The notes under the pieces were generated by a model. It was not told where the DNA came from. It saw only the letters and a list, made by a program, of their open reading frames with translations, and did not search any database. From NCBI GenBank assembly GCA_051008185.1, contig JBPCXW010000046.1, positions 1 through 42,730 of the forward strand: DNA of 42,730 bases. The letters are read 5' to 3'. The position numbers and the translations under genes are program-made. This stretch comes from Gammaproteobacteria bacterium. GTDB lineage: Bacteria > Pseudomonadota > Gammaproteobacteria > Eutrophobiales > Eutrophobiaceae. Shown one piece after another: positions 5,964 to 42,690 of the stretch (position 1 is its first letter; each line of letters starts with the position of its first letter).

Positions 5964-5972
5964 GCCTGTTTA

Positions 5973-11917: not shown

Positions 11918-12817
11918 TTACACCAAAAAGAATGTCGCCAGTAAAGGAATATAGTGATCCAGCAGCAGGAAAGCGAACAAGCCCAGCAGATACCAGATAG
12001 AGAATGAAAACGTTTGCATCGCGACACGGTCGTCCCGTGTTTTTATCAGCTTCAATGTGTAGTACAAAAAGATCAGGCCCAATACCACCGCGCCCAGCAG
12101 ATAGCACAGGCCGCTCATCAGGGTGAGGTAGGGTAGCAGGCTCACTATGAAAAGGATCAGGGTGTAGAGCAGGATCTGTAGTTGGGTGAATGCGGTGCCG
12201 TGGGTTACCGGTAGCATCGGGATGTCGGCTTTGGCGTAGTCCTGCCTGCGATAGACGGCCAGTGCCCAGAAGTGTGGCGGTGTCCAGGCGAAGATGATCA
12301 GGAACAGCAGCAGGGCGTGCGGGTCCAGAGAGTTGCTTACCGCCGCCCAGCCCAGTACCGGGGGGGCGGCACCGGCGGCACCGCCGATGACGATGTTTTG
12401 CGGGGTGGCGCGTTTCAGGTACATGGAATAAACCACGCCGTAGCCTATCAGGGAGAACAGGGTCAGTACCGCGGTAAAGGTATTGACGAACAGGATCAGG
12501 ATTAGCATGGAGGCCAGGCATAATGTCGCCGCGAATATCAGGGCGTGTCTTGTTGTCACACTGCCGCGCGGCAGGGGGCGGGATTGGGTGCGTGACATGA
12601 TGCTGTCTATCTTCTCATCAACTACATGATTGAGGGCCGCTGCCGAGGCGGCGGCGAGGCCGATGCCGATTGTGCCGGCAATCAATATCTCCCAGGGCAC
12701 CATTGCCGGTGTTGATAACAACATTCCAACGACGGCGGTGAAGACGATCAAGGCAACAATTTTGGGTTTGCACAGGGCCAGATAACTGTGCCAGCTTGTT
12801 GTGGCGGTGTTATTCAT
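11918..12817 (-). CDS. cyoE: Protoheme IX farnesyltransferase (heme O synthase)
   Basis: 299-aa polytopic membrane protein. It carries UbiA-family motifs (NHVVDEKIDSIMSRTQSRPLP and YSMYLKR) and lies directly downstream of ctaA in the oxidase cluster. Confidence 0.9.
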   Translation of the reverse strand: MNNTATTSWHSYLALCKPKIVALIVFTAVVGMLLSTPAMVPWEILIAGTIGIGLAAASAAALNHVVDEKIDSIMSRTQSRPLPRGSVTTRHALIFAATLCLASMLILILFVNTFTAVLTLFSLIGYGVVYSMYLKRATPQNIVIGGAAGAAPPVLGWAAVSNSLDPHALLLFLIIFAWTPPHFWALAVYRRQDYAKADIPMLPVTHGTAFTQLQILLYTLILFIVSLLPYLTLMSGLCYLLGAVVLGLIFLYYTLKLIKTRDDRVAMQTFSFSIWYLLGLFAFLLLDHYIPLLATFFLV

Positions 12818-13805
12818 GGTTGAAAGTCTGGTAGCTGAAATAAGTAATAGTAACTACGCTCAGCAACAACAGTGCCGCCATGCCATTGTGCGCCACTGCC
12901 ATTGTCAGCGGCAACACCATCACGACATTGCCTATGCCCAGCGTGATCTGCAGCGCAAGCAATGACAGCATGATGATGGCGAGGAGTCTTGCCAATCTGT
13001 CGCCGATGCTGAACAGGCGCCATGCCAACAACAGCCCGGCCAACAAGACCAGTAGCGCGCCGACGCGGTGGGTCAGGTGTATTGCCGTTCGCGCCGCGGC
13101 GTCCAGGATGCCGCCTTCGTAATCCAGCCCCGCTTCGCGCCAGAAGACAAACCCCTGCACAAAATCAGTCGGCGGTAACCAGATGCCATCGCGACAATCA
13201 GGGAACGACGGACAGATCAGGGCGGCGTAGTTGCTACTGGTCCAGCCGCCGAGAAAAATTTGCAGGGTCAGGACGGCCAGCATCAGTAGGGCGGCGGGTT
13301 TTGCCGCCGTCATCTTCGCGGTGCTTTGCCCGGGCGGGCGCATCTGCTGTAACAACAGCAGCAACAACAGGGACAGTATAGTCATGCCGCCCAGCAGATG
13401 TGCGGAGACGATTAGCGGTTGCAGTAACAGGGTCACCGTCCACATGCCCAGCAGGCCTTGCAGGATCACCAGCACCAGAACGGTCAGGCTGAGTGGAAGA
13501 TGTTGTCGGCGGTTCAGGGCCGCCAGCACTGTCAAGGTGAGGATCAGCAAACCCAGACCGCCGCCGCCATAGCGGTGGATCATTTCACGCTCGGCCTTGC
13601 CTGCATCATAAGGCCGCTCGGGGTAGGCCGCGTTGATCGCTGCGGCTTGATCCGCCGCCGGTGCCAGTAGCTGCCCGTAACAGCCCGGCCAGTCCGGGCA
13701 GCCGAGGCCGGCATCCGTCAGGCGCACCCAGGCACCCAGCACTACTACTGCATAGGTCACGCACAAGGCCAGCACGGTGAGCAGCCATAACGAATCGGGT
13801 TTCAT
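12810..13805 (-). CDS. ctaA: Heme A synthase (COX15/CtaA)
   Basis: 331-aa multi-TM protein with a conserved GCPDWPGCYG motif and His-containing helices (IHRYGG, HLTHR). It is adjacent to cyoE. Confidence 0.82.
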   Translation of the reverse strand: MKPDSLWLLTVLALCVTYAVVVLGAWVRLTDAGLGCPDWPGCYGQLLAPAADQAAAINAAYPERPYDAGKAEREMIHRYGGGGLGLLILTLTVLAALNRRQHLPLSLTVLVLVILQGLLGMWTVTLLLQPLIVSAHLLGGMTILSLLLLLLLQQMRPPGQSTAKMTAAKPAALLMLAVLTLQIFLGGWTSSNYAALICPSFPDCRDGIWLPPTDFVQGFVFWREAGLDYEGGILDAAARTAIHLTHRVGALLVLLAGLLLAWRLFSIGDRLARLLAIIMLSLLALQITLGIGNVVMVLPLTMAVAHNGMAALLLLSVVTITYFSYQTFNHE

Positions 13806-13806
13806 C

Positions 13807-14415
13807 TCAGCCCAGCCGCGAGTATTTCAATAAGCGGGTCATGTCTTTGATGATGCCGCGCGGATCGATCCCGGGTTCATACATCATCATCAGGTTGCCC
13901 AGTGGGTCAATAAGATAAAGACGCTGGCGGGAAAACGGCTGATCCTCCGGCCGGATTTGAAACAGGCCCTGATATTCCGGCTTGTCCAGCAGGCCGTAAG
14001 ACAGCATGAGCTGGCCCTGATAATCCCTGATCTGCTGGGCGTTGAACAGGTCGGTGCCGTCTGCGGTATGGATTACCACGCGTTGCACCCGGTGGGCATA
14101 TTTGTTCGTGGCCAGTCTGATCTGCCGCATCCTGTAGATGTTTTGTTCGCAGTCCCGATCACAGGGGCCGTCCAGTAGATAGACCAGACTCCATTTGCCA
14201 TGCAGAAAAAATTCCTCCGATCCGGGGGCGGCGGGGTTGTACAGTTGAATATCCTCCAGCGGCCGGGGCGGGTCAATCAACTCGCCGTTATGCGCTATCT
14301 TGATCTTGCTTACATCGGTAAAGCTCAGCAGATACCAGGAGAGGGCAAAAGGTGCCACGCATACGGTCAGTAATAGTAGCAAGGTGAATAATTGTTTTCG
14401 TTGTTCAGGTGTCAT
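13807..14415 (-). CDS. Membrane-anchored SCO1/SenC-like thioredoxin-fold protein (oxidase biogenesis)
   Basis: 202 aa with an N-terminal TM. A CxxxC motif (GPCDRDCEQ) follows GKWSLVYLL. It sits between SURF1 and ctaA. Confidence 0.5.
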   Translation of the reverse strand: MTPEQRKQLFTLLLLLTVCVAPFALSWYLLSFTDVSKIKIAHNGELIDPPRPLEDIQLYNPAAPGSEEFFLHGKWSLVYLLDGPCDRDCEQNIYRMRQIRLATNKYAHRVQRVVIHTADGTDLFNAQQIRDYQGQLMLSYGLLDKPEYQGLFQIRPEDQPFSRQRLYLIDPLGNLMMMYEPGIDPRGIIKDMTRLLKYSRLG

Positions 14416-22012: not shown

Positions 22013-23172
22013 TGCGCGGCACAGAACCGGTGCAATTCATCCAGCAGGCGTTGCAACTGCTCCGGCGTATGCGCGGCGTTCAGGCTGATGCGAAGTCGCT
22101 CCGTGCCGGCGGCCACGGTGGGTGAGCGGATTACCCCTGTGCGGATCCCCTGCTCGGCGAGGAACCGTCCAGCTTGCATTACCTGTTCATTGCCCGGTAG
22201 TAGCAAGGCCTGAACCGGGGTGTCTGATGGCAGTATCGTTAGCCCGCGCTCGGCGGCGCCCCGGCGGAACAGCGCGATCAACTGCCGCAATGTCTGTCGC
22301 CGCCAGTCCTCCTGTGCGAGCAGTTGCAAGGCCTTGTCCGCCGTGGCGGCCAGGGCCGCGGGTAAGGCGGTGGAGTAAATGTAGCTGCGGCCCTGTTGCA
22401 GGATCAGCTCCACCAGATCGCGGTCACCGGCGATGAAGGCACCATGCACGCCTGCGGCCTTGCCCAGTGTCGCGATGATCAACGGCACCTGTTGTTCGGA
22501 CAGACCGAGTTGCGCCACGGTGCCGGCGCCGTTGTCACCCAACACGCCGAAGCCGTGCGCGTCATCCACGGCCAGAACGGCATCGTGTTGTTGGCACAGT
22601 CGCGCCGCCCCGGCGATGTCCGCCACCACGCCGGACATACTGAACACAGACTCGGTCACCACCAGCGCACCGGGCGCGGCGGTTTGTAGCAGGCGCGCGA
22701 GGTCTGTTGTTTGCAGATGGCGGTAGCGTTGTAGTCGTGCTGCTGTCAGGCGACCGGCATCTATCAGTGAGGCGTGATTGTGTTTGTCCATGATCACATT
22801 GGCGTTGCGGTCGGCGGCAAGGGTGGTGACCAGTGCCAGATTGGCCAGATAGCCACTGGAGAACAACAGGGCGCGGGAGCGGCCGGTCAATTCGCAGATG
22901 TGTTGTTCCAGTTGTCGGTGGGCGTTGCTGTAACCGCAGATCAACGGCGAGCCGCCGCTGCCGATGCCGTAACGAGCGGCGGCGGTTTGCAAGGTTTGCA
23001 CCAGCCTCGCGTCATTGGCCAGGGCCAGATAATCATTGCTGCAAAAATCCAGTGGCTTGCCGCGCTGGCGGTCGGCGGCGGCCTCGGGAAAGATCAGTTC
23101 GCCGACGCGGGTCAGGCCGCGCTGGTGAATGGCATCAAGCCGTCGGCGCGGCCATTCGCGTGCGGCCATCAT
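22009..23172 (-). CDS. bioF: 8-amino-7-oxononanoate synthase
   Basis: It belongs to the PLP-dependent alpha-oxoamine synthase family ([10 protein letters not shown] and a TLGKA Lys). The start is taken at the ATGATG at 23172/23169, which overlaps the bioB TGA. The track ORF is extended 5' into bioB. Confidence 0.9.
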
Positions 23173-29811: not shown

Positions 29812-31158
29812 TCAAGCTGTCAGTGTTTTGATCAGATTGTTGTAATCCTCCTCTATCTTGGTCTCCGTCTGCCGCAACTCGGCTATTTTGCGGCAGCCAT
29901 GCAACACCGTGGTGTGATCCCGGCCGCCGAAGGCGTCCCCGATCTCGGGCAGGCTGTGATTGGTCAGTTCCTTCGCTAGTGCCATGGCCATCTGCCGCGG
30001 CCTCGCAACCGAGCGGCTACGCCGTTTTGACAGGATATCCGCTACCCTGATCTTGTAATACTCGGCGATGATCTTTTGAATGTTCTCCAGGGTGACCTGC
30101 CTGTCCTGCAGCAACAGCAGGTCCCGTAACGCACTCTGGCAGAACTCCAAATTGATGGGCTGCCCGGTCAGATTGGAACTCGCGACCACCCGGTTCAACG
30201 CCCCTTCCAGTTCGCGCACATTGGAGCGAAACCGCTTGGCGATAAAAAAAGCCACTTCGTCCGGCAGGGCGATGCCATGATACTCCGCCTTGGTCTTGAT
30301 GATGGCGACACGGGTTTCCAGTTCCGGCGGATCAATGGCGACGGTGAGTCCCCAACCGAAGCGCGACTTCAATCGTTCTTCCAGCCCCGATACTTCTTTG
30401 GGATATTTATCACAGGTCAGCACGATCTGATGCTCACCCTCCAGCAGGGTGTTGAAGGTATGGAAAAATTCTTCCTGGGAATGATCCTTGCCGGCAAAGA
30501 ATTGAATATCATCTATCAACAACACTTCCAGCGAACGGTAGTAACGTTGGAACTCATTGATGGCTCCGTACTTCAACGCCTTGACCATGTCAGCCACAAA
30601 GCGTTCCGAATGCAAATAGGCGATGTTGGCTCCCGGTTTTTGTTTTTCAATCGCCTGACCGATGGCGTGCATAAGATGTGTCTTGCCCAACCCGACACCA
30701 CCGCAGATAAATAACGGGTTATAAGTCTGGCCAGAGTTTTCTGCAACTTGTTGGGCCGCCGCTTGTGCCAACTGGTTTGATTTACCGGCGACGAAAGAGT
30801 CAAAAGTAAAATTGCGGTTAAGGCTGCTGGCGCGTTTACTACCGGCCGGCTTGACCGGCGGAGCCACCGCGGCGTTGGCGGCGACACGGCGTTCAGCAGG
30901 GATTTCTGCGGTATCCTGCGTCTGGCTACCGACGCTCAGGGATAATTTAACCTGTCCGGCACCGTTGTCGTTTTGCAGTAATTCCTCTATGCGTTGTCGG
31001 TATTGCTCGTTGATCCAATCCACTATAAAGCGGTTTGGCGCAAGCAACCGCAGGGAGTCCTGATCCTCTATCGCGTGCAACGGCCTGATCCAGGTGTTGA
31101 ACAGTTGCGGCGATAGTTCGCCTTTAAGTTGTTCCAGACAGGAATCCCATACAGACAT
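29812..31158 (-). CDS. dnaA: Chromosomal replication initiator DnaA
   Basis: 448 aa. The AAA+ Walker A reads [10 protein letters not shown] and Walker B reads LLIDDIQF. The C-terminal DNA-binding helix reads [10 protein letters not shown]. Confidence 0.97.
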
Positions 31159-32183: not shown

Positions 32184-33845
32184 ATGGATACGACACGCCT
32201 GATCCTGATCACCTCCCTGACCCTGGTGTCGCTACTGCTGTACGAGGCCTGGCAGCGGGACTACGGGTTGCGTGTTGTGCCGCCTCCGACGACGGCGGAC
32301 GGTGCGGCAGCGGTGCCACCGGACTTGCCCCCGGGTGCCGATGAGATTCCCGCGATGTCGGAGGCCGCCGAGTCGCCCGCCATCAGCGAGACGGTGCCGG
32401 AACAACAATCGCAAGCGGACTATATTGATGTCTATACCGATGTGCTGCACCTGAAGATCAACAAACGGGGCGGCGCGCTTGAGTACGCCGAGTTGTTGCA
32501 ATACCCGGTTGAGGTGAAGCAACAGGATGTGCCGGTGGTGTTTCTGGATAACAGCAACAGTCTGGTGCATGTCATTCAAACGGGGTTGCTCGGGCAATCC
32601 GCACCCAATCATCAGGATCGTCTCACCGGCACTCAGGACGAATACCGCTTGCAGGACAGGGATGAACTGCGGGTCCCGCTACACTGGCAGGATGCGAACG
32701 GGGTGACGGTCAGCAAGGTCTTTGTCCTGCGCCGCGGTAGTTACCTGATTGATATTGATTACCAAATCAACAACCCCTCCAGCGAGCCCTGGGTGGCCAG
32801 CACCTATTCACAGATCAAACGGGATACCGCCGGCACCGGGCGCAAGCTGGTTTATACCTACACCGGCGCGGTGATCTCCAGCCCCGAAGATCGTTACAGC
32901 AAGATAGACTTTGATGAGATAGAAGAGCAGGACCTGTCCCTGTCAATCAAAAATGGTTGGGCGGCGATGTTGCAACACTACTTCGTCTCGGCCATTATCC
33001 CGACGCTCTCCGACAGTGCTTATCAGTTTTCCACCAAGGCACTGAAACGCAATCAATATCTAATCCGCGCCGTGTCACCACTACAACGAGTTGAAGCCGG
33101 TGCCGAGGGCCGCCTGAATAGCCGGGTCTATGTGGGCCCGAAACTGCAAGAGCAACTGGCCGAGGCCGCAGAGGGTCTGGAGCTGACGGTTGATTACGGC
33201 ATCTTGTTTTTCATCGCCAAGCCGTTGTTCTGGTGTCTGGCCAAATTTCACGAACTCACGGGCAACTGGGGCTGGGCCATCATTCTGGTGACCATCGTGC
33301 TAAAGCTGTTGTTCTTCCCGCTGTCGGCGGCGGGCTATCGCTCCATGGCAAACATGCGCCGGGTGCAACCCCGGATGATGGCAATGAAGGAACGCTATAA
33401 AGATGATCGCAACGGTCTGAATCAGGCCATGATGAAATTGTACAAAGAGGAAAAAATAAATCCGTTCGGCGGTTGTCTGCCTATTCTGGTACAGATCCCG
33501 GTATTCATCGCCCTGTATTGGGTGTTGCTGGAAAGCGTGGAATTGCGTCAGGCGTATTTCGCATTGTGGCTGGTTGATTTATCCAGCCCTGATCCGTACT
33601 GGGTGCTACCCATCATCATGGGTGCCACGATGTTGATCCAGCAAAAACTAAACCCGGCACCGATGGATCCGTTACAACAAAAAGTGCTGATGATCATGCC
33701 GTTCGCCTTTACCATCTTTTTCGGTTTCTTCCCGTCCGGCCTGGTGTTGTATTGGGTGGCCAACAACATCCTGTCCATTGCGCAGCAGTGGCAAATCACG
33801 CGCGGCCTGGAAAAGGCAGGGCTGGCCGCTGGCACCAAAAAGTAA
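32184..33845 (+). CDS. yidC: Membrane protein insertase YidC
   Basis: 553 aa with a large periplasmic domain. The C-terminal core reads NWGWAIILVTIVLKLLFFPL...GCLPILVQIPVFIALY. Confidence 0.96.
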   Translation: MDTTRLILITSLTLVSLLLYEAWQRDYGLRVVPPPTTADGAAAVPPDLPPGADEIPAMSEAAESPAISETVPEQQSQADYIDVYTDVLHLKINKRGGALEYAELLQYPVEVKQQDVPVVFLDNSNSLVHVIQTGLLGQSAPNHQDRLTGTQDEYRLQDRDELRVPLHWQDANGVTVSKVFVLRRGSYLIDIDYQINNPSSEPWVASTYSQIKRDTAGTGRKLVYTYTGAVISSPEDRYSKIDFDEIEEQDLSLSIKNGWAAMLQHYFVSAIIPTLSDSAYQFSTKALKRNQYLIRAVSPLQRVEAGAEGRLNSRVYVGPKLQEQLAEAAEGLELTVDYGILFFIAKPLFWCLAKFHELTGNWGWAIILVTIVLKLLFFPLSAAGYRSMANMRRVQPRMMAMKERYKDDRNGLNQAMMKLYKEEKINPFGGCLPILVQIPVFIALYWVLLESVELRQAYFALWLVDLSSPDPYWVLPIIMGATMLIQQKLNPAPMDPLQQKVLMIMPFAFTIFFGFFPSGLVLYWVANNILSIAQQWQITRGLEKAGLAAGTKK

Positions 33846-33856
33846 TCCCGCCGCCG

Positions 33857-35194
33857 GTGGAGCAGACAGACACCATCGCCGCGATAGCCACGCCGCCCGG
33901 GCAGGGCGGTATCGGCATCATCCGCATCTCCGGGCCCGGCAGTGTTGATATCGCCAGACAGATCACCGGCGTTGATCCCGTGCCGCGGCAACTGCAATTT
34001 TGTTCGTTTCCGGATTCCGCCGGCCGGATTATTGATAACGGCATCATGTTGTATTTTCAGCGACCGGCATCCTACACCGGCGAAGAGGTGATTGAGTTAC
34101 AGGGACACGGCGGCCCGGTGGTCTTGACGATGTTGTTGCAACGGGTAATCCAGTGCGGTGCCAGACAGGCGAGGCCGGGCGAGTTCACCGAGCGGGCCTT
34201 TCTGAACGGCAAACTGGATCTGGCCCAGGCGGAGGCGGTGGCGACATTGATCAGTAGCCGGTCAGAGCAGGCGGCGCGTAATGCCTTCTCTACTCTGGAG
34301 GGAGTCTTCTCCGGGTTGGTTGATGAGTTACAGCACAAACTTATTGATGCCAGGGTGTATGTAGAGTCCCTGCTGGACTTTCCGGAAGAGGAGGTTGCCA
34401 CTTATGTCGCCACCGAGCTGGCGCAGCGTCTGGATGTCTGCCAGACCGCGACCGACACCTTGCTACGCCAGTCAAGAAACAGCAGGCTTTATACTCAGGG
34501 TCTGCAGATAGCCATCATCGGACGGCCCAACTCAGGCAAATCCACACTGCTCAACCGCCTGTGCGGCAGCGAGCGCGCCATTGTCACCGAGCAACCCGGC
34601 ACCACCCGCGACACGCTGGAAGAAGAGATACTGATCCACGACATCCCGTTCCGCCTGATAGATACCGCCGGCATCCGCGCCGGTTCCGATGCGATAGAAA
34701 CCGAGGGCATCAGCCGCGCCGTAACGGCCGCACAGCAAGCGGACATTATCCTGCTGGTGATCGATCTCAGTGCCGAACCGGTTGCCGACACGATGCTGGA
34801 AGAGAAGATAGATAACGATGACAACAGACTGATACGGGTTCATAATAAAATCGATCTGCTGGACATACAGCCGCGTGGCGACGAGGCAGAGGTTTATATC
34901 TCGGCGCAGACCGGGGCCGGTCTTGATCTGCTCCGGCAAACCATCGTTACACGGGTCAGCGACGGGCAGGAAACCGACACCCGGTTTGCGGCACAGCAAA
35001 GACATATATCCGTACTACAACAACTTGAGCAGCAACTACAGACAGCACGGCAACGGTTTGAACAAAACAAGGCACTGGAATTACTGGCCGCCGACTTGCA
35101 GCAGATGCAACAGGAGCTGGGCACGATCAACGGCGAGTTTGCGGCAGACGATTTGCTTGGCGAGATTTTCTCCCGCTTCTGCATAGGAAAATAA
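33857..35194 (+). CDS. mnmE: tRNA modification GTPase MnmE (TrmE)
   Basis: Motifs include DTIAAIATPPGQGGIGIIRISG, the G1 motif GRPNSGKST, and the C-terminal FCIGK. There is no ATG, so I chose the GTG at 33857 by alignment with the usual N-terminal length. The track ORF overlaps yidC. Confidence 0.93.
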   Translation: MEQTDTIAAIATPPGQGGIGIIRISGPGSVDIARQITGVDPVPRQLQFCSFPDSAGRIIDNGIMLYFQRPASYTGEEVIELQGHGGPVVLTMLLQRVIQCGARQARPGEFTERAFLNGKLDLAQAEAVATLISSRSEQAARNAFSTLEGVFSGLVDELQHKLIDARVYVESLLDFPEEEVATYVATELAQRLDVCQTATDTLLRQSRNSRLYTQGLQIAIIGRPNSGKSTLLNRLCGSERAIVTEQPGTTRDTLEEEILIHDIPFRLIDTAGIRAGSDAIETEGISRAVTAAQQADIILLVIDLSAEPVADTMLEEKIDNDDNRLIRVHNKIDLLDIQPRGDEAEVYISAQTGAGLDLLRQTIVTRVSDGQETDTRFAAQQRHISVLQQLEQQLQTARQRFEQNKALELLAADLQQMQQELGTINGEFAADDLLGEIFSRFCIGK

Positions 35195-35196: not shown

Positions 35197-35580
35197 ATGA
35201 GCATTCATACAGAAACATCAGTCGGTGAATTCCTGGACAAGCTGACCATCCTGAAACTAAAACTGGACAAGGTAGAGGACGGATCCAAGCTGGAAAATAT
35301 CAGGAAGGAACACGACACCCTTGTCGCCAGCTGGAATGCTTCGTCCTACAGCCGCATGGATCTGGATGAAGAGCTTGCCGCGCTGAAAAAAATCAATGCG
35401 GAGCTATGGCAAATGGAAGAGGACATTCGCGCCAGAGAGCACAACGGAGAGTTTGACAAAACCTTCGTTCGTCTGGCCCGCGCGATCTACAAAAAGAATG
35501 ACGAACGCGCGGCGATAAAAAAACGCATCAACGAAAAAACAGGCTCAACACTGACGGAAGAAAAATCATACGATAGCTGA
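35197..35580 (+). CDS. Conserved helical hypothetical protein (possibly DUF6165-like)
   Basis: 127 aa, starting 2 nt after the mnmE stop. Pattern: GEFLDKLTILKLK...ELWQMEEDIRARE...LARAIYKKNDERAAIKKRIN...EEKSY. The family name comes from memory only. Confidence 0.55.
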   Translation: MSIHTETSVGEFLDKLTILKLKLDKVEDGSKLENIRKEHDTLVASWNASSYSRMDLDEELAALKKINAELWQMEEDIRAREHNGEFDKTFVRLARAIYKKNDERAAIKKRINEKTGSTLTEEKSYDS

Positions 35581-35594
35581 CAGAGGAATAAATC

Positions 35595-35990
35595 ATGACA
35601 AAGAAGATCGCCGATCCGGAAACAAACAAACGCAACGTATCAGCATTCTACGAATTGATGTTCAACGAATGCCGCCCAAGAGAGGCGATTGAAAAATATG
35701 TCGGGGACGAATACATCCAGCACAACCCCCACGTGCGATCAGGCAAGGACGGTTTCATAGAATATTTTGAACGAATGGCTACCGAGCACCCGGGCAAACA
35801 GGTCCGGATAAAAAAGGCATTCGCCGAAGCAAACCATGTCATCCTGCACTGCCACCAACTTTGGCCCGGCGGAAAAGAATACGCCGGCATTGACATCTTC
35901 CGGCTTGATGACAACGGCAAGGTCGTTGAACATTGGGACGTGCTACAGGAAATGCCGGAAACCAGCGCCCATGACAATGGGATGTTCTAA
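35595..35990 (+). CDS. SnoaL-like / NTF2-fold family protein
   Basis: 131 aa. Pattern: NKRNVSAFYELMFNECRPREAIEKYVGDEYIQHNP...DIFRLDDNGKVVEHWDVLQ, typical of SnoaL-like polyketide-cyclase-fold proteins. Confidence 0.68.
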   Translation: MTKKIADPETNKRNVSAFYELMFNECRPREAIEKYVGDEYIQHNPHVRSGKDGFIEYFERMATEHPGKQVRIKKAFAEANHVILHCHQLWPGGKEYAGIDIFRLDDNGKVVEHWDVLQEMPETSAHDNGMF

Positions 35991-36028: not shown

Positions 36029-36787
36029 TTAGTCTGGCTTCTGGCCTCGTGTGGCGCTGTCCAGTTTATACAAATGGTGCATCACCGCGTCAATTCCGCC
36101 AGTGATAAGCGATAGCTGTTCGTGCTTTGCTTCCATGAGTATCGCGTATGCCAAGTCAAAATGTTCGCCGGTCGTGATTTGATAGGTTTCCATAAGATCG
36201 TTTAGAGTATCGGTTTCATCCATATCTAGATAGTCCGCAATATCGATGAATGTTTTCATATCAGGGTACTGTTCAAATATCCCGTCCAAAACGCTATCCG
36301 CTATTTTTATTCCTTCTGTGTCGACCTGCTCAAAGAGTGACATGACCCGCTCAAACGAATATTCATCAGTTCCAAGATTGAGTTCCTCTGCAAGAAGTTG
36401 GTGAATCATTTGGCTAGCGTCCTCGCCACTTTGATTCAGGCGACCGGTCGGATTCCCTTCTTTATCTCGGTAAACCGTACAACCGGCGTGAACCTTGCCC
36501 AAGAGAGGAGCTATCTTTTGGGCAAGGTCGCCGACCTTTACAGGGTCCAGAAAATCGAAGCACCCAGGTTGCGTTGCAGACATCCAAGACAGCACGTCCC
36601 CGTACCAAATGGGCTCGGAACGTTTCGAAGTATTAGAGTAAACATTATTGCAAAACATGTCGGCAGTTCCATTGTCATAAAGCTCAACAATTATGTGGTA
36701 ACCAGTACAGGTGGTCACAGCGGCAGCAGCATAAAATGATCCGAAGTCGATTTGAATAGTTGGGGTAATTGCCGTAACTGTTTTCAT
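36029..36787 (-). CDS. Hypothetical soluble protein with an acidic C-terminal half (operon gene F)
   Basis: 252 aa with no TM and no recognisable catalytic motif. It is the last gene of the six-gene minus-strand operon. Confidence 0.6.
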   Translation of the reverse strand: MKTVTAITPTIQIDFGSFYAAAAVTTCTGYHIIVELYDNGTADMFCNNVYSNTSKRSEPIWYGDVLSWMSATQPGCFDFLDPVKVGDLAQKIAPLLGKVHAGCTVYRDKEGNPTGRLNQSGEDASQMIHQLLAEELNLGTDEYSFERVMSLFEQVDTEGIKIADSVLDGIFEQYPDMKTFIDIADYLDMDETDTLNDLMETYQITTGEHFDLAYAILMEAKHEQLSLITGGIDAVMHHLYKLDSATRGQKPD

Positions 36788-36824
36788 TAGAGGGTGTAAA
36801 GTTTCCTATGTAAATTGATCTTAA

Positions 36825-37001
36825 TCATCGGGCCTTTTTGCGAAAGACGAAAAACCTCTTGATCTTTTGGACTATGGCATACAATCTATTTTTCCATGGA
36901 GAAGAGGGCGGAATAAGACGCTGTTGCAACAGGGCTGTAATAGTGCTGTCTAGTTGTTGGAGTACTTTTTCATACTCGTCTGCTAATTTTTTCTCCACCA
37001 T
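36825..37001 (-). CDS. Small helical protein with a basic tail (operon gene E)
   Basis: MVEKKLADEYEKVLQQLDSTITALLQQRL...KRFFVFRKKAR. The start at 37001 lies 7 nt after the gene D stop. The alternative start at 37049 overlaps gene D by 41 nt. Confidence 0.45.
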   Translation of the reverse strand: MVEKKLADEYEKVLQQLDSTITALLQQRLIPPSSPWKNRLYAIVQKIKRFFVFRKKAR

Positions 37002-37008
37002 TGAGTTA

Positions 37009-37641
37009 CTACCTAAATATCGGACAAAAGCCGACCTTATCGCGCACAAATTCGATTACATTTCCATCAACCTTGGCTTTGTTGATGGTAGCCATTAATC
37101 GGCATTCCTCGCCGTGTTGAATGTTTTTAGATGTAATTATGCGGCGACCAAAATTTAGAAACTCATCTTTTGACATTTGTTCTGTGGGGAAGTCTTTAAG
37201 AATGGATAGGGCACCATTCAGAGCATCATTTACAATTTTTGCATCTCTTTCCCAGTCTCTGTTTGGTCTGATACTGAATGAATCGGCATCAGGATGATAG
37301 GTTATGTCGTAGGCAAAGTAATACTTCCGTTTTCCGGACCTCAGCCAGCATGGCAAGCAACCAATTTTGCCTACCAGACCTTCGCCTTCCCCGCCTTCGC
37401 CTTCCTTACCTTCGCCTTCCTTACCTTCGCCTTCCTCACCTTCGCCTTCCTCACCTTCGTCGCCACCTATACCTGTCGTATCCTCTACGGGTTCGGGTGG
37501 TGCGAGGTCGTCTTTAAATCTGGCGAGCTCTAAAGTCTTGGCCATCAACAACAGGAGGATAATGGTTGCTAGAATCAACATAATTTCGGTTTGCGTGAGG
37601 GCCAAGACTCCTTCTCGGCGTTTCAGCAGACGCACACTCAT
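37009..37641 (-). CDS. Single-pass membrane protein with an acidic EGEGx repeat linker and a C-terminal CxxC-containing domain (operon gene D)
   Basis: 210 aa. The TM region is LTQTEIMLILATIILLLLMA, with an acidic residue at its entry. It is followed by GDEGEEGEGEEGEGKEGEGKEGEGGEGEG and then a globular domain of about 120 aa (CLPCW...). The start overlaps the gene C stop (ATGA). Confidence 0.7.
   Translation of the reverse strand: MSVRLLKRREGVLALTQTEIMLILATIILLLLMAKTLELARFKDDLAPPEPVEDTTGIGGDEGEEGEGEEGEGKEGEGKEGEGGEGEGLVGKIGCLPCWLRSGKRKYYFAYDITYHPDADSFSIRPNRDWERDAKIVNDALNGALSILKDFPTEQMSKDEFLNFGRRIITSKNIQHGEECRLMATINKAKVDGNVIEFVRDKVGFCPIFR
37378..37464. repeat. In-frame 15-bp tandem repeat (about 5.8 copies) inside gene D
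   Basis: The units accttcgccttcc(cc/tt/tc) lie at 37378, 37393, 37408, 37423 and 37438, with a partial unit at 37453. They encode EGEG(K/E) pentapeptides on the minus strand. Confidence 0.92.
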
Positions 37642-38807
37642 TTGTTATTCCCTTCCTGCTCTATGTTTTGAGCAATGGTGCGGAGGTCCTTGGCTATCTG
37701 ATCCAGATTGTCAATTCCTCCCAGTGCTAACTTGGCTCCGGTAATCAGCCGTCCGTAAAGACGGTGGGTTTCTTCAAGTGCCGTTTGTGCGGCCTCATCG
37801 AATGCACGGCGGTAGCTTTCCTTTATTTCAGCAATGGATTTCACGTCACTCCGAATAGTCTTGATGAGATCATCAAGGGCATCTCGCGCTTCGTGCATTC
37901 GTTGCACGTCATGTTCGGCATTACCTATCAATGCCGTTTGTTCTTTCGATATCGTCTTCAGGGCTTTGTTCAGGTTTTCTACTCCTTCGGAAAATGCCTG
38001 TACAGTGTCGTTTATAGCGTTCAGGGAGGACAGAGCGTGCCTCACGTCCTCAACACCGGTGGTGGTTGCTTTTGTTGCCGTGTTCAATTCTTCCAGAGAC
38101 TGAGAAAACGCCTGATTAACGCCTAAAACGGCTGCCCGATGTTCATCTAGGGTTGCTTGTAGTGCTTCACGCACATCATCAAAGTGCGTTTTCTGGAGCG
38201 ACTCTGCGATTCGCGCACTGAAGTCTTCCAGCACACTCCCCAGCGCATTGCTCATCGCGCGCCCAATCTTTTGAGTCTCTTCCTCAGTCCGCCTGGAATA
38301 TGTACTCATCGCATTCGTTACTTGGGACATGGTTTGCTCTACGCCGGTAACACACTCATTCACCTGAACGACGGCAACTTCCAACTCCGTGGCAGCGACA
38401 GCCGCTTTTGTCACAGCCCTGTCAAATTCATCTTCCGGAGGTTTCCACCCATGAGTTAGCCCGAATCGCCAGATCATGCCAACCACACTGGTTCCGAGAG
38501 CTATCCCCACTGTTGTGAGTAGCGGAAGCAAGTCGCCTCCTTTGTTGGATAGCAGGGAATCTGTATCTAGCATCAACGACCAAGTGATGACTGCCAGCGT
38601 ATAGACGAATCCGATAAAATAGCAGTTATCCCCTACTTCGTAACGATGAGCAAGATCGGCTTCATCCTTGGTGAGAAATGCGTAAAGGGAAAGCAGAAAG
38701 CTCAATACGAGCAATCCCCACCATTCCGCTCGTATAGGGCGAAAAATGGCTGAAAGAGCAATGCCTACCACGCAGTAGAACACCGGATAGTTGAGTAGAG
38801 CCTTCAT
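37638..38807 (-). CDS. Four-TM membrane protein with a long (about 270 aa) alpha-helical/coiled-coil C-terminal domain (operon gene C)
   Basis: 389 aa. Hydrophobic segments are YPVFYCVVGIALSAIF, WWGLLVLSFLLSLYAFL, CYFIGFVYTLAVITWSLML and LLPLLTTVGIALGTSVVGMIWRF. The remainder is helix-forming and low in Pro/Gly. The start overlaps the gene B stop (ATGA). Confidence 0.7.
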   Translation of the reverse strand: MKALLNYPVFYCVVGIALSAIFRPIRAEWWGLLVLSFLLSLYAFLTKDEADLAHRYEVGDNCYFIGFVYTLAVITWSLMLDTDSLLSNKGGDLLPLLTTVGIALGTSVVGMIWRFGLTHGWKPPEDEFDRAVTKAAVAATELEVAVVQVNECVTGVEQTMSQVTNAMSTYSRRTEEETQKIGRAMSNALGSVLEDFSARIAESLQKTHFDDVREALQATLDEHRAAVLGVNQAFSQSLEELNTATKATTTGVEDVRHALSSLNAINDTVQAFSEGVENLNKALKTISKEQTALIGNAEHDVQRMHEARDALDDLIKTIRSDVKSIAEIKESYRRAFDEAAQTALEETHRLYGRLITGAKLALGGIDNLDQIAKDLRTIAQNIEQEGNNK

Positions 38808-39601
38808 TTACACACCGCCGGACTCCACTCTATGGACGCACCAAGTTCCGAGAAATAATTCTTCCAGAAAAGAATATGGTCCTCGTTGTTTTGCACAGAG
38901 CGGGCCAGATCACCCGTTCGTTTGAGGTAGAGAACTTCCACTTCCACGTCTGACAGTGAAAATTGCGGGAAATCCCGCCCATGAATTGAATTCCGCCAAA
39001 CCTGAAAGTCTGCACCATCACGGTAATGTGAGTATTCCGGCGGGGTGTGCTGTAGCATGTCCGATATCACAATCAAACGGCGTTTTTTTGTGGGGTCATC
39101 AAAATTTCTGTCCAGTGCTACCGCCTTAATCATCTCGTGAATCGGCGAGGTAGTATGAGGAGATGTTTGTATTAGGCGTTTGATTGCGGCCGCCATTGGC
39201 TTTTGGAACTTCTCCTCAAACCGCCGTTGTACCCATTCGGGATTCTGTATCAATGGATTGGCTTTGCCGGGAGAGCATAGTGCGATTTCAGGTGCTGGCA
39301 AAGTCAAGTTGTTTTCATGGAGAATAAATATCCCAACCCACTCGTCATGATCAGGTTGCTTTAGCAGGTTGTTTATTATTTCCTCTTCAACCTTTTTCGC
39401 TTGGCTCTCGCATAGTCGGTCGGTTGCGTCTAGTAGCACAGCAGTGCGAGGATAGTTTCCATCTTCGGGGCACAGGGTGAGCGGGTCGTAATTTTTTCCT
39501 CCGGCTACAATTTTTACGATAATGACGATGACAATCAACAATACGCTCGTCAAAGCAATAACGGCAACTCTCCGGTCTTTACGTTGCTTTTCCGTAGGCA
39601 T
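38804..39601 (-). CDS. Membrane-anchored protein with a degenerate vWA-like (Rossmann-like) domain (operon gene B)
   Basis: The TM is VAVIALTSVLLIVIVIIVKIV. It is followed by TAVLLDATDRL ... TTSPIHEMIKAVAL ... RRLIVISDMLQH, which resembles vWA strands and MIDAS positions. The ATG at 39601 overlaps the gene A TAA (TAATG), and 39643 is an alternative start. Confidence 0.6.
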   Translation of the reverse strand: MPTEKQRKDRRVAVIALTSVLLIVIVIIVKIVAGGKNYDPLTLCPEDGNYPRTAVLLDATDRLCESQAKKVEEEIINNLLKQPDHDEWVGIFILHENNLTLPAPEIALCSPGKANPLIQNPEWVQRRFEEKFQKPMAAAIKRLIQTSPHTTSPIHEMIKAVALDRNFDDPTKKRRLIVISDMLQHTPPEYSHYRDGADFQVWRNSIHGRDFPQFSLSDVEVEVLYLKRTGDLARSVQNNEDHILFWKNYFSELGASIEWSPAVCK

Positions 39602-40902
39602 TATGTCAATTCGCGTTGGATTTGTTCTTTTTCTTCTTGGCATTCCTTCTGCAATGATTCTTTCTCCGGCCTGATTTCATCGCATTCTGCTTTCAAGCGA
39701 CGACTTTCTTCATCCAATCCGTGAAATTCGTTTTCATCAGGGAATTGTTCGAAATAGGGTGGAGCAGAATCAGCACGAATCTCGCTATTCGCTTGACGGT
39801 AAACCACAAGTAAGCTCTCAGCCAACTGCGATGTTTGGGCGGACAGGTGCGCGCCCCCGGCTTCTTGTCGAAAGGCGTTAAATTTACTATTCATGGTGTT
39901 AACGGCACGGTCTATATCTTCACTGACTTTTTGCAGTTTCACATTCCTATCGCTCCGTTGCTTTTCCAGAGCATTCAGCGCGTTTTTATAGTTCTCTCTT
40001 GCGTTTTCCTTTTGACGCAACATCGTGCCAAACCCGGGATAACGGTCATCATACTCATAACCTTTCCAAAACCCGATGAAAGCGCAGAAAACACCTACGA
40101 TCATCAGCAGAAAAGCCTCTGGCGTTACAATCAATCCCCAAAAGTCCAGATGTTTCAAGCTATCCAAAGCTGCCCCCCATGCTTCAAATGCCAGCTTCTC
40201 AGGCAGTACGGCTCCACGCAACAAATCCAGATGTCCCCGGTACAAGGCAGACAGGCACACAACCACCATGCATACCAGAACGAAAGTCAAAGACAGAAGG
40301 ACCCCTGCTAATTTTTTCGCCGGATCACAATGACCAGCGTAGCGTAACCCCAGTACGCCACCTAGAAATGCACATCCCACATTAGCGAAACTAAAAAAGA
40401 ATGCGAAAAAAAATCCCCCCGCCAGTCCATATTCCGATGCGGAAGCGAAAAAATAGCTATTAAATAATCCCTCGACAATCACAACAAAGAATGCCCAAAC
40501 GGTTTGGGTAAAGCGGTCACCGCCTGATGCTTCTCGCTGAAGCCTATTGTCGGCCTTGAACTTTGCGTAGGCGGCGGATGTCTGGTTTATCCCTTTATCA
40601 AGAGCTTCCAGTACGTTCTTGGAGACTGGCGGAACACTAGCCATAATAACTTGCCGTTGCTTACGGCCCCTTGCAAGCGTTTCGCTACAATTTTGAATTG
40701 AGTCCTTGGCATTTTGGCAGAGAACATCAAGCGCATGAAGGGCTTTTCTTGCTGCTTTTTTAGCTTCCTCCACAGCCCCAATTTCTGCGCCAGTCAAGCC
40801 GGTCGCGTCCTGTGCAGGCATACCAGCAAGCGCATTCTGCTGGGCAGCCTCCTTAAGCCCTAGCTTCTCGGCCAATTCATTGGTTAGTGCATTGATGTCC
40901 AT
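39601..40902 (-). CDS. Polytopic membrane protein with charged coiled-coil-like N- and C-terminal domains (operon gene A)
   Basis: 433 aa. Four central hydrophobic segments are present (VWAFFVVIVEGLFNSYFFA, GGFFFAFFFSFANVGCAFLGGVLGL, LAGVLLSLTFVLVCMVVVCLSALY, AFLLMIVGVFCAFIGFW). They are flanked by helical, charged regions of about 140 aa each. Confidence 0.7.
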   Translation of the reverse strand: MDINALTNELAEKLGLKEAAQQNALAGMPAQDATGLTGAEIGAVEEAKKAARKALHALDVLCQNAKDSIQNCSETLARGRKQRQVIMASVPPVSKNVLEALDKGINQTSAAYAKFKADNRLQREASGGDRFTQTVWAFFVVIVEGLFNSYFFASASEYGLAGGFFFAFFFSFANVGCAFLGGVLGLRYAGHCDPAKKLAGVLLSLTFVLVCMVVVCLSALYRGHLDLLRGAVLPEKLAFEAWGAALDSLKHLDFWGLIVTPEAFLLMIVGVFCAFIGFWKGYEYDDRYPGFGTMLRQKENARENYKNALNALEKQRSDRNVKLQKVSEDIDRAVNTMNSKFNAFRQEAGGAHLSAQTSQLAESLLVVYRQANSEIRADSAPPYFEQFPDENEFHGLDEESRRLKAECDEIRPEKESLQKECQEEKEQIQRELT

Positions 40903-41089
40903 GTTGTTTATTTTCGGCTATGTGGTGGGCGAAATCAGAAACCGCTAGGGTCAATCGGACATTATACTTAAACCTTACCCAGAAAGGGGGAGTGACCAAA
41001 TCTGACCATAATTGACGGATTTTATCCGTTTTTTGGTGTATTATCCACCTTAAAGCAGGTATCATTGTCAAAAATTGGCGGAGAATCGT

Positions 41090-42217
41090 ATGTTGCTGGA
41101 ATTTGGTGCGAAAAACTTCTATTCCTTTGATGAGGGATTTGAAGCTTCATTTCGTTTGAATAACAACTGCCCCGTAGATATTTCAAAAGGGTTGGAAGCC
41201 TCCACGGTTATGTGTGTAAAGGGCGCGAATGCAAGCGGCAAAACCAATGTTTTGCGAGTGCTCGCGTTTTTGGTAGAGTTTTGTTGCAACTCATTTTCTA
41301 AAAAACCAGAGGAGAAAATCAAGGTAGTCCCACATTTTTCAAAACAGGCCTTAAGCGAGTTCTATATTGTGTTCAGCGTCAATGGAAGCGAGTACAGGTA
41401 TGAATTGGCTGTGTCCCCCGAAAAAGTTGATCAGGAAAAATTGTTCCTAGATGGCACTTTGGTTGTAGAAAGAAACAAAAATGAGTTTGTTTCTTTAAAA
41501 AAGGAATTTGATTCTCTCGAGACAGTTAAGTTAAGAAACAACGCCTCGTTTATAAGCACTGCGAATCAGTATGAAGTAGAAGCAACTAAAGATATTTATT
41601 TTGCATTCTGGCTCTTTGTTGTGAGTGTTGAGGATGTTGGGAGAAAGCCTCCTATAAGCTACCAAGATATTTCATGGGTCTATCATAAAGATGAAGTTAG
41701 TTTCAGGTTTGCAAAAGATATAATCAGCAAATGTGATCTAGGCGTTAAGGATATAGAAATAGTCAAGAAAGAGAATGAAAAGGGAGAGCAGATACATAGC
41801 CCTGTCTTTTCACATCAGACCAGGCAGGGAACACAAAAGCTTTCTTATGATTCCCAATCAAGCGGCACAAAAACGCTGTACGATTATTTGCTTTTATATT
41901 CTACAACTTTAGAAGATGGTAGAGTTCTGGTTCTTGATGAGTTTGATATAAATCTCCACCCGCATATCTTGCCCCTTTTGGTTGATCTTTTTGATAAGCC
42001 GGAGACAAACCCCCAAAAAGCCCAGCTAATTTTTACCACCCATAATTCAGCCATTATGGATGACTTGGGGAAATATCGGACATTGATGGTTCAGAAGAAA
42101 AATAACACCAGTTTTGTATATCGGCTTGATGAAATACCAGGGGATATGCTGAGGAATGACAGAAAAATCACCCCTTTGTATGAGGCAAGAAAGATAGGCG
42201 GGGTTCCCATAATTTAA
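41090..42217 (+). CDS. ABC-type (AAA_21/AAA_15-like, COG1106-like) ATPase
   Basis: The N-terminus MLLEFGAKNFYSF is typical. Walker A reads GANASGKTN, the signature-like motif SQSSGTK, Walker B/D-loop LVLDEFDINLHPH, and the H-loop FTTHNS. The ATG at 41090 has GGAG 7 nt upstream. The track uses a TTG at 41075. Confidence 0.8.
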   Translation: MLLEFGAKNFYSFDEGFEASFRLNNNCPVDISKGLEASTVMCVKGANASGKTNVLRVLAFLVEFCCNSFSKKPEEKIKVVPHFSKQALSEFYIVFSVNGSEYRYELAVSPEKVDQEKLFLDGTLVVERNKNEFVSLKKEFDSLETVKLRNNASFISTANQYEVEATKDIYFAFWLFVVSVEDVGRKPPISYQDISWVYHKDEVSFRFAKDIISKCDLGVKDIEIVKKENEKGEQIHSPVFSHQTRQGTQKLSYDSQSSGTKTLYDYLLLYSTTLEDGRVLVLDEFDINLHPHILPLLVDLFDKPETNPQKAQLIFTTHNSAIMDDLGKYRTLMVQKKNNTSFVYRLDEIPGDMLRNDRKITPLYEARKIGGVPII

Positions 42218-42690
42218 TGAGTAGGTTTTATAACAAGGATAAAAAGGAGTTTTTGCAAAATCTTCCCTCGGATTCGCTTGAAGGGGAAACATGCACGATA
42301 CCGGCGCGGCTGAAATTTAATTTCTCGCTTCTGGATATTTCTCAAAAAGGAACAGAATCATTTGAATCTCTTCGTGAAGGGCAGAGAAAGAAACTAATCA
42401 AAAAGATCGTTGAGCTGTCTCGGGAACCACGTCGGCATTGGGAGGAAGAAAACCTACTTGCTATCTATGGAGAATTTCCCACTAAAAAATCAAACTTCAA
42501 GCACCCCAAACACGTCCCGCATGATGTGGAGTGGGCTCGATTCAGGATTGAGAGCGATTTTCGGTTGGCCGGGTTTTTTGTGCCGAAAAATTTTCACGAC
42601 AAAGAGCATGAGAAATTGAAGGTACGTTTTGATAGCAATACTTTTTATGCAGTTTTTATCGATCCGGAACATAACTTTTACAAGCAGTAG
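42217..42690 (+). CDS. Small basic protein of unknown function, translationally coupled to the ATPase (candidate effector/partner)
   Basis: 157 aa. The ATG overlaps the ATPase TAA (TAATG at 42215-42219). No TOPRIM (DxD), HNH or Walker motifs are visible. Confidence 0.6.
   Translation: MSRFYNKDKKEFLQNLPSDSLEGETCTIPARLKFNFSLLDISQKGTESFESLREGQRKKLIKKIVELSREPRRHWEEENLLAIYGEFPTKKSNFKHPKHVPHDVEWARFRIESDFRLAGFFVPKNFHDKEHEKLKVRFDSNTFYAVFIDPEHNFYKQ

Follow-up and report, generated by a model that had tools for sequence, protein, structure and literature searches.

The DNA considered here is contig JBPCXW010000046.1 (assembly GCA_051008185.1), the entire 42,730-nucleotide (nt) length of which constitutes the window analyzed and which belongs to a metagenome-assembled genome (MAG) deposited as 'Gammaproteobacteria bacterium'. 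Our subject is a block of six minus-strand open reading frames (ORFs), named A to F, that a prior sequence-only reading had singled out as a tightly coupled operon encoding mostly membrane proteins of no recognizable family. All six ORFs could be read directly from the window, with the coordinates, start/stop overlaps and gaps that this reading had described:

39601..40902, minus strand: gene A, 433 amino acids (aa), from ORF and transmembrane (TM) scans
38804..39601, minus strand: gene B, 265 aa, TM-anchored protein with a predicted von Willebrand factor A (vWA) domain
37638..38807, minus strand: gene C, 389 aa, four-TM domain followed by a helical tail
37009..37641, minus strand: gene D, 210 aa, single N-terminal TM helix, acidic spacer and 'PCW' domain
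36825..37001, minus strand: ORF E, 58 aa, possible small accessory gene, found in the closest subclade only
36029..36787, minus strand: ORF F, 252 aa, acidic and TM-free orphan

Consecutive reading frames overlap at the first three junctions, which read ...ACATAATGCCT between A and B (a TAATG overlap), ...AAATGAAGG between B and C (an ATGA overlap) and ...AAATGAGTG between C and D (again ATGA, the start of D overlapping the stop of C), and these are followed by gaps of 7 nt (D/E) and 37 nt (E/F). A hydropathy scan assigned four TM segments to A, one to B, four to C, one to D and none to E or F, in keeping with the proposal that four of the six products are membrane proteins. The NCBI record lists A (ACR2P9_02330), B (02325), C (02320), D (02315) and F (02310), all as hypothetical proteins, and agrees with the start codon of gene B used here; ORF E carries no annotation there, the locus tags of F (02310) and D (02315) running consecutively. 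In base composition, the block A-F has a G+C content of 0.476 vs 0.568 for the core of the contig (12000-35194), a replication-origin region in which DnaA (29812-31158) and MnmE (33752-35194) match solved homologues among PDB sequences at E-values of 6e-115 and 2e-109. The spot counts from which a low G+C content had been proposed, 21/60 at 41101-41160 and 36/60 at 22021-22080, proved exact, and the placement of the block beside origin-proximal genes and opposite a divergent ABC-ATPase pair was likewise borne out, the divergent neighbor being AbiLi.

The gene order A-B-C-D is conserved outside this genome: it is kept, with genes mostly overlapping or nearly abutting, in all 16 complete related loci, which were reached through relatives of C, B and A. 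The related loci include close ones (L001, L002, L003, which shares its contig with L008, L004, L007, L009, L010, L012 and L013), distant ones at roughly 22-34% identity (L014, L015, L017, L021 and L022) and annotated alphaproteobacterial plasmids (Rhizobium johnstonii 3841 pRL11, RL_RS31080-31095; Paracoccus yeei pTT13-1; S. fredii pSfreNXT3b), identity over the 16 loci falling from 62-69% to about 22-28%. Across loci, the proteins span ~430-570 aa for A, ~235-282 for B, ~290-515 for C and ~270-400 for D. Because the order persists in 16 of 16 complete loci, we regard A-D as a functional module under purifying selection. ORF E has a counterpart in L001, a 58-aa ORF right after D that can be aligned with E over the full length (BLOSUM62 local score 69; 35% identity by blastp, with E 5e-6 against a small database), and none in the remaining related loci checked; it is possibly a small accessory gene of the closest subclade. 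ORF F showed no similarity in 20 related loci, plasmids or the PDB and nothing significant in Pfam, PADLOC or PHROGs, and it probably lies outside the conserved system. Since E recurs in one locus only and F is an orphan, the proposed six-gene operon is better described as a four-gene core with local additions; the tight coupling claimed for it is real and conserved for A-D, and the six-gene extent is not.

Homologues of C form 78 clusters among 5.8 billion proteins, none of them named, and window-type C was found in 7 of 185,579 species genomes, every one of them a MAG and several named for sponge-associated or marine lineages. A metagenome scan added one further locus only, a short one. The cassette is also carried by plasmids, mainly rhizobial and Paracoccus megaplasmids, and the distant relatives of A that were inspected all (8/8) lie within the same four-gene arrangement. 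When full-length A-F were compared with Pfam, NCBIfam (June 2026), PADLOC and PHROGs, the C tail gave sub-threshold coiled-coil matches and the rest gave nothing significant; that NCBIfam release has no name for any of the six, RefSeq names the Rhizobium and Paracoccus cassette proteins 'hypothetical protein' or merely 'OmpA family protein', and the literature searched contained no description of a gene set made up of A, a vWA-type B, C and D. As A-D have no Pfam, NCBIfam or PADLOC model, current defense-finder pipelines miss the cassette: PADLOC found AbiLi in the window and no named system from A-F.

For B, the vWA-like domain that had been suspected from sequence was recovered by structure prediction. 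The AlphaFold2 (AF2) model (predicted local distance difference test, pLDDT, 88.4; predicted template modeling score, pTM, 0.81) returned 37 PDB structure matches at E<=1e-3 in Foldseek, and the listed top 50 were nearly all of the vWA fold (E 4e-5 to 2e-3, probability ~1.0), with neighbors including TFIIH p44/Ssl1, the Sec23/24 trunk, Rpn10, integrin I domains, BatB, TEM8 and CLCA1. As modeled, B has a Rossmann-like alpha/beta vWA fold, one that is invisible to sequence models (no match to Pfam VWA, and nothing meaningful when a B profile was compared with all PDB sequences). Residues D58, D61, S152, S180, D181 and C44/C109 are invariant and T60 is nearly so; D58, T60, D61, S152 and S180/D181 fall at the positions expected of a metal ion-dependent adhesion site (MIDAS), where the MIDAS-like motif D58-A-T60-D61-x (D-x-T-D) replaces the canonical D-x-S-x-S and the fifth position is variable, being R in the window. 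A basic N-terminus, a single TM helix, nearly no linker and two invariant cysteines would together place the domain on the periplasmic face of the inner membrane. The idea that A and B form a second motor-like pair was considered and rejected because the TM helix of B has no conserved polar residue.

Relatives of gene A are numerous in the sequence databases. A phmmer search against 1.84 billion cluster representatives gave 1778 matches at E<=1e-3, of which 918 reach E<=1e-10 and 36 reach E<=1e-30, and judged by sequence similarity A founds a large unannotated superfamily of ~1,800 clusters at 50% identity. The protein is laid out as a cytoplasmic coiled-coil N-arm, four TM helices (hydropathy segments 137-153, 163-184, 195-225 and 254-281) and a cytoplasmic coiled-coil C-arm, and its nearly invariant residues are E144 and N148 in TM1, H191, a D286-x-Y-P-G motif just past TM4, and R369/N372/R376/P381. 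Searches of Pfam, PADLOC and the PDB yielded no relative, and comparison of an A profile with all PDB sequences gave nothing meaningful. Weak PADLOC matches to the membrane region of LeoBC/LeoC, of the Eleos dynamin-like system, were given by three A-family proteins, namely window A (residues ~255-376), P0151 and P0153 (E 3e-4, 3e-3 and 9e-3); these could be remote homology of TM4 and the DDPYPG region, or composition noise.

The features of B, C and D to which the interpretation refers are located as follows:

~38807-39484, minus strand: vWA domain of B, predicted to face the periplasm, with a degenerate MIDAS-like site
~37641-38453, minus strand: helical tail of C (AF2 model), predicted to be cytoplasmic from a positive-inside count
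38595..38633, minus strand: C residues 59-71, where TM3 begins, motif GDNCYFIGFVYTL, with D60, Y63, G66, F67, T70 and L71 invariant
38463..38522, minus strand: C residues 96-115, TM4, LLxTVGIALGTSVVGMxxRF, with A103, L104, S107, G110, M111 and R114 invariant
37540..37605, minus strand: D residues 13-34, TM helix LALTQTEIMLILATIILLLLMA, containing the E19 codon (37585-37587) of the proposed ion-binding acid
37378..37459, minus strand: 15-nt tandem repeat in D, 5.5 copies (Tandem Repeats Finder score 136; also recovered by a second repeat search, as family D1), encoding a GEGEE/GEGK spacer

The description of C as a four-TM protein with a helical tail was confirmed. Its TM segments (5-25, 29-47, 64-80 and 93-112 by hydropathy) form a four-helix domain in the AF2 model (pLDDT ~90), from which ~265 residues of all-helical tail continue; across the family, this tail measures 225-399 aa. 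Lysine and arginine counts in 77 C homologues (7.7 inside vs 1.85 outside) favor an orientation in which both the N-terminus and the tail are inside, and the acidic TM3-TM4 loop is predicted to be periplasmic. Both T70 (TM3) and S107 (TM4) are invariant in 77 C sequences, as is L96 in the C-family alignments, and the motifs around them persist in the distant cassettes, TM3 as AGDNLYYLGFLYTL and TM4 as FGIA(L/V)(S/T)(T/S)TIxGxxLR; window C and the distant C proteins, which have these motifs in common, match each other by BLAST at E 2e-12 to 2e-6.

Full-length searches hid a motor signal in this family because the C tail attracts coiled-coil noise. C-family proteins matched the ZorA hidden Markov model (HMM) weakly (E 2e-5 to 1e-3), mostly through the tail and together with many other coiled-coil proteins, with matches to the TM region in relatives only. 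Upon removal of the tail, the top Pfam match became MotA_ExbB (PF01618) for the C proteins of L014 (E 8.5e-4), L017 (E 2.9e-3) and L019 (E 0.13), whose scores of 19.5, 17.8 and 12.5 bits are below the gathering score of 22.9 and whose TM3-TM4 regions align to profile positions ~50-107 (in L014, residues 82-127 to positions 58-104). For ten tail-less C queries compared with PADLOC, ZorA was the sole family matched, by the L003 protein from the window's own subfamily (E 1.3e-3, residues 79-131 on profile positions 143-195) and by that of L017 (E 0.015). In Foldseek comparisons with the PDB, about 18 of the 43 best matches to the C model were single chains of ExbB, TolQ, MotA or ZorA, none of them significant (E 0.2-1), so that the structural comparison proposed earlier gave clear vWA matches for B and non-significant motor-chain matches for C. 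The C-family HMM further aligned S107 with TolQ T178, ExbB T181 and MotA T209, and G110 with the conserved glycine of each (TolQ G181, ExbB G184, MotA G212). A first guess that TM4 corresponds to TM2 of TolQ (GLFGTVWG motif) was overturned by the Pfam and HMM alignments, which put TM4 on the last pore helix. In Zorya, Asp26 of ZorB contacts Thr147 and Ser184 of ZorA, and a tail comes after the last TM helix (PMC11946911); the 37-residue spacing of T70 and S107 in C equals that of T147 and S184, and a tail follows in both proteins.

The partner encoded by D begins with a TM helix whose motif, [LF][TS]xxE, is present in 21 of 21 aligned sequences from close and distant cassettes. The acidic repeat linker attributed to D is encoded by the tandem repeat listed above, and the spacer at this position varies in kind, from the acidic GE repeat of the window through a Pro-rich TonB-like segment (L002, L004) to coiled coil elsewhere. 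The window protein ends in a 'PCW' domain of ~115 aa with two invariant cysteines. An OmpA peptidoglycan-binding domain replaces this last domain in the cassettes of L015, L018, L019 and L020, as judged by Pfam in L018 (PF00691, 28.7 bits vs a cut-off of 27.2, E 1.7e-6), by the RefSeq name 'OmpA family protein' in L018, L019 and L020, and by sequence in L015; the D proteins of L018 and L017 also gave weak ZorB matches. By lineage, the positional equivalents with an OmpA domain belong to the four alphaproteobacterial cassettes (Rhizobium, Sinorhizobium, Paracoccus) and to L015. A D profile gave no significant alignment to E. coli TolR in hhalign and nothing meaningful against all PDB sequences. 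A type IV pilin-like reading of the D N-terminus (LTQTEIML vs FTLIELM) was dropped, since the combination of a conserved Gly at -1 and a Glu at +5 is missing and orthologues carry OmpA/MotB-type domains.

The surroundings of the cassette supply two further recurrent elements, defense genes and an exported thermonuclease. In at least seven loci besides that of the window, genes of the restriction-modification (RM), toxin-antitoxin (TA), HEPN-NTase, AbiEii, Type ISP, CHAT, DUF4041 or NERD kind are found no more than 10 kb away, and a thermonuclease gene (Pfam SNase) adjoins the cassette in 6 of 16 loci:

Window, 41075..42690, plus strand: AbiL-type pair, AbiLi ATPase 41075-42217 and a 157-aa partner 42217-42690; context, outside the system
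L001: SNase gene 10339-10887; neighbors AAA_15 ATPase and DUF3226
L002: neighbors HEPN/NTase, HicB and a methylase fragment
L003: neighbors C5 methylase, HATPase_c_3 and NTase
L013: neighbors HicB, N4/N6 methylase and AbiEii
L014: neighbor Type ISP restriction enzyme
L015: SNase gene 5911-6249
L017: SNase gene 5385-5927
L018: SNase gene 13398-14141
L020: SNase gene 12216-12872; neighbors CHAT, DUF4041 and Phd/YefM
L021: SNase gene 3957-4505; neighbor NERD protein

In the window, AbiLi is identified by PADLOC (E 5.2e-63) and as an ABC/AAA_21 ATPase by Pfam (AAA_21, E 1.7e-37), and the 157-aa ORF, which shares 1 nt with it and has no match to any model, is AbiLii by position only. The contig stops 40 nt past this partner, and the island may extend further. 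In L017 the SNase start overlaps the stop of D, so that the two genes are translationally coupled. The five full-length SNase copies are exported, given their signal peptide or TM anchor, and that of L015 is fragmentary; no SNase gene is present in the window, where orphan F sits at the downstream position instead. Small unannotated or hypothetical ORFs of 75-117 aa also occur inside or just 3' of several distant cassettes (L021 8827-9054, L014 4323-4568, L018 14351-14656 and L020 11766-12119), where they lie between C and D, after D or beside the SNase gene.

Six signals (Pfam, PADLOC, Foldseek, the mapping of S107, the OmpA partner and the TM acid), each weak alone, appear from sequence and models to converge on one protein family and on the same two helices of C. 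We accordingly weigh them as a set, and lean, with a modest degree of confidence, toward A-B-C-D being a widespread unannotated inner-membrane system, Zorya-like and serving envelope surveillance or defense, in which C and D make up a divergent motor of the ZorAB/MotAB/ExbBD type. On our best reading, it would be a new Zorya-like system based on a 5:2 motor with two entirely new partner families. The earlier verdict of no recognizable family, which held for the library scans of A-F, would then give way for C and D, whose resemblance is to a divergent ZorA/ZorB (MotA/MotB, ExbB/ExbD)-type pair; similarly, the statement that nothing here matches Zorya or Tol/Exb stands for the gene set as a whole, which fits no named system, and not for C and D, given the tail-less searches and the distant cassettes.

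Under this Zorya-like reading, C and D would form an ion-driven stator unit, C5D2 by analogy. The last two TM helices of C would line a pore through a ring of T70 and S107, the proposed pore-lining residues, and inside it would sit a D dimer's TM helices, with the invariant E19 as ion-binding acid. From there, the spacer and C-terminal domain of D could reach a periplasmic anchor (OmpA in distant cassettes, 'PCW' here), and the helical tail of C would project into the cytoplasm as does that of ZorA. On the periplasmic side of the membrane, B would present a vWA domain for ligand binding, possibly as a sensor of a periplasmic ligand or damage, and A would be a partner or effector whose cytoplasmic arms may read the C tail. 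If the mechanism parallels that of Zorya, D would engage its anchor when the envelope is perturbed, C would be driven around D by the flow of ions, and the tail would pass on the signal. A, acting at the membrane, would then be the output, joined in many relatives by the exported thermonuclease, acting nucleolytically in the periplasm; the system might thereby serve envelope surveillance against phage or incoming DNA.

The likeness to Zorya extends over several levels. Like ZorA, C has a Thr/Ser pair spaced by 37 residues on its last two TM helices and, beyond these, a long helical tail of variable length that is predicted to be cytoplasmic; like ZorB, D is a coupled subunit in which an acid in the N-terminal TM helix precedes a spacer and then a periplasmic anchor (OmpA-like in the distant cassettes); and association with nucleases and defense islands is frequent in both. 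The differences are equally specific: similarity is sub-threshold, C has four TM helices and neither the membrane-proximal cytoplasmic domain nor the beta-hairpin, D has Glu rather than Asp and, in the window, 'PCW' instead of a peptidoglycan-binding domain, the partner genes come first in the cassette and the motor after, and the associated SNase is exported where the Zorya nuclease is cytoplasmic. Known Zorya partners are ZorC together with ZorD for type I, ZorE for type II, and ZorF/DUF3348 with ZorG/DUF2894 for type III (PMC8565338), whereas the cassette partners are a 4-TM coiled-coil protein and a periplasmic vWA protein. No PADLOC or Pfam match to ZorC-ZorG was found in A, B, E, F or the distant cassettes; given these absent partners and the missed HMM thresholds, we do not regard the cassette as Zorya itself.

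A more comprehensive formulation, which we advance tentatively and would give somewhat less than an even chance, is that the cassette represents an unannotated class of 5:2 motor (at least 1,700 A clusters at 50% identity) uniting a ZorAB-like tailed stator, a vWA sensor, a 4-TM coiled-coil protein and, often, an exported thermonuclease. Such a class might be an immune system driven by the proton-motive force (PMF), or another machine acting periplasmically on invading DNA or envelope damage, and would use a Glu-based relay.

A number of observations weigh against the Zorya-like reading. For the motor itself, window C gave no MotA_ExbB match at full length and, tail-less, no MotA_ExbB or ZorA match in its TM region even at E<=10; every library match in the C family lies below its curated threshold, and the link to window C is transitive; the Foldseek matches to motor chains (E 0.2-1) have large root-mean-square deviations; and neither a C TM profile compared with all PDB sequences nor hhalign against E. 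coli TolQ gave anything significant. C also has an extra TM helix, four in all, without the ZorA membrane-proximal cytoplasmic domain, and AF2 splits its tail into three or four helices, which makes a folded bundle possible instead of an extended tail. Window D has no OmpA, ZorB or PDB match and no recognizable peptidoglycan-binding domain, an HMM of the D N-terminus was not significant against TolR, ExbD or MotB, and the TM acid is Glu, vs the Asp described as universal in 5:2 motors (PMC11946911). For the proposed function, the case for defense is one of gene neighborhood, and three loci (L012, L019 and L022) are surrounded by housekeeping or transport genes; the SNase found with the cassette is exported, whereas ZorD and ZorE are cytoplasmic; no relative of C or A turned up in the phage collection or viral contigs scanned; and plasmid-borne cassettes are few (18-24 of 72,556 plasmids).

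The main rival accepts the same motor and vWA domain and assigns them to a non-immune envelope machine of the Tol/Ton/Agl kind, which would deliver PMF to the periplasm for envelope maintenance, adhesion or, together with the exported nuclease, for processing extracellular DNA or taking it up; we consider it rather unlikely. It draws on the proposal, made from synteny and structure modeling, that vWA proteins tethered to the inner membrane work alongside TolQ-like motors as 'force transducers' (Mol Biol Evol 2025, PMC12204202), on the TonB/TolA-like character of the D spacers (Pro-rich, helical or acidic), on export of the nuclease, on the several loci among housekeeping or transport genes and on the occurrence of the cassette on chromid-like rhizobial megaplasmids. 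An anchored periplasmic vWA protein encoded beside a gene for a 5:2-like motor is indeed common to the published families and to the cassette. The former, however, pair with bona fide TolQ homologues and have either an SHLS/His TM motif with an extended linker or, on the vWA protein, a helix with a TolR-like Asp. In the cassette the acid helix belongs to D, a protein distinct from B, and A is a constant fourth component; with no SHLS/His motif, no Asp helix and almost no linker, B falls outside those families (PMC12204202).

Comparison with MotAB/PomAB, ExbBD-TonB and TolQRA (PF01618) is similarly divided. The sub-threshold MotA_ExbB matches of the C family cover the two putative pore-lining helices, S107 and G110 align, ExbB and TolQ chains are among the Foldseek neighbors of C, and D and its relatives have TonB/TolA-like spacers or a MotB-like OmpA domain. 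The cassette nevertheless stays below the Pfam threshold and differs in having no TonB, TolA, Pal or flagellar partners, a long cytoplasmic tail on C, Glu for Asp in D and a patchy, accessory distribution. That distribution (7 of 185,579 species genomes for window-type C) speaks against the non-immune envelope machine, as do the variable flanks, low G+C content and frequent RM, TA and Abi neighbors, a B linker too short for the outer membrane, and a long cytoplasmic tail so far seen only in Zorya.

A second rival, in our view improbable, holds that the stator likeness of C and D is a coincidence of hydrophobic and coiled-coil composition, and that the genes encode an unrelated membrane complex, such as a pore-forming abortive-infection or membrane-stress module equipped with a vWA sensor. 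This would be consistent with MotA_ExbB and ZorA matches that are all sub-threshold and never from window C directly, with Foldseek E-values above 0.1, with negative profile searches against the PDB and TolQ, with Glu in place of Asp in D, and with the many other coiled-coil proteins that accompany the ZorA matches of the tail. Against it, six independent weak signals single out one family and one pair of helices, and the ten tail-less queries matched no PADLOC family besides ZorA.

That the system truly comprises six genes, with E and F integral and F perhaps a local effector in place of the thermonuclease, we hold to be quite improbable. All six genes share one strand with short gaps of 7 and 37 nt, an E-like ORF is positionally conserved in L001, and F sits where SNase lies 3' of D in L017; yet F is without relatives (related loci, plasmids, PDB) or a significant family match, E is unannotated and absent from the other loci checked, and only A-D are kept in 16 of 16 loci.

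An already named system is scarcely credible: the C/D pair is ZorAB-like and BatB is among the nearest bacterial structural neighbors of B, but A-F contain no match to ZorC-ZorG, MoxR, DUF58, KwaB, TolB or Pal (which sets aside Zorya I-III, the Bat/MoxR aerotolerance operon, Kiwa and Tol-Pal), the ZorA, ZorB and TolQ models stay below threshold, and the proteins are unnamed in the June 2026 NCBIfam and called 'hypothetical protein' in the RefSeq Rhizobium and Paracoccus copies. With BatA/BatB (Bacteroides aerotolerance) the cassette shares a TM-anchored bacterial vWA protein, BatB (3ibs) being among the Foldseek matches of B, and differs in having no MoxR, DUF58 or TPR (BatC/E) component, no Pfam VWA match and a D-x-T-D MIDAS-like motif; because neither a MoxR AAA+ ATPase nor DUF58 was found in A-F or in 16 related cassettes, it is not a Bat/MoxR operon.

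To our knowledge, the known classes of 5:2 ion-driven motor are few (flagellar stators, Ton, Tol, Agl and GldLM, and Zorya), and among them we know of none but Zorya that is linked to immunity or that has a long cytoplasmic tail. A second tail-bearing class, if confirmed, would make the 5:2 motor a more general signaling device than one defense system implies, and would offer comparative leverage on how tail rotation is read out and how envelope perturbation is sensed. Culturable, tractable hosts exist in Rhizobium johnstonii 3841 (pRL11, RL_RS31080-31100) and Paracoccus yeei, making direct tests possible.

The remaining features of the contig concern the setting of the cassette. The divergent intergenic region between A and abiLi (40903..41074, no strand assigned) is presumed from its position to hold the operon promoter; it contains a single sigma-70-like match, on the minus strand at 41047-41019, and in promoter and terminator scans promoter-like sites were no commoner than in shuffled sequence. 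Between mnmE and the island, 35197-35990 (plus strand) holds two small genes, one for a DUF6165 protein (Pfam E 3e-13), the other for a SnoaL-like protein (E 7e-13), at a G+C content of 0.49, so that the low-G+C region begins directly after mnmE. The other low-G+C flank of the contig (623-8381, minus strand, G+C 0.47) is a tightly packed gene run with Cas3 at 5973-8381 (minus strand; phmmer against the PDB, E 7e-88 to Cas3-HD) and, at 3241-5241, a protein of the Cas8c/CT1133 family (minus strand; E 4e-4), which together make it a type I-C-like CRISPR-Cas module. With the A-F/AbiL flank on one side and this module on the other, two defense islands bracket the origin region. Between the Cas genes and the core, 10243-11844 (minus strand) encodes a 533-aa protein with a Fic (AMPylase) domain, matching FICD and SoFic at E 2e-7.

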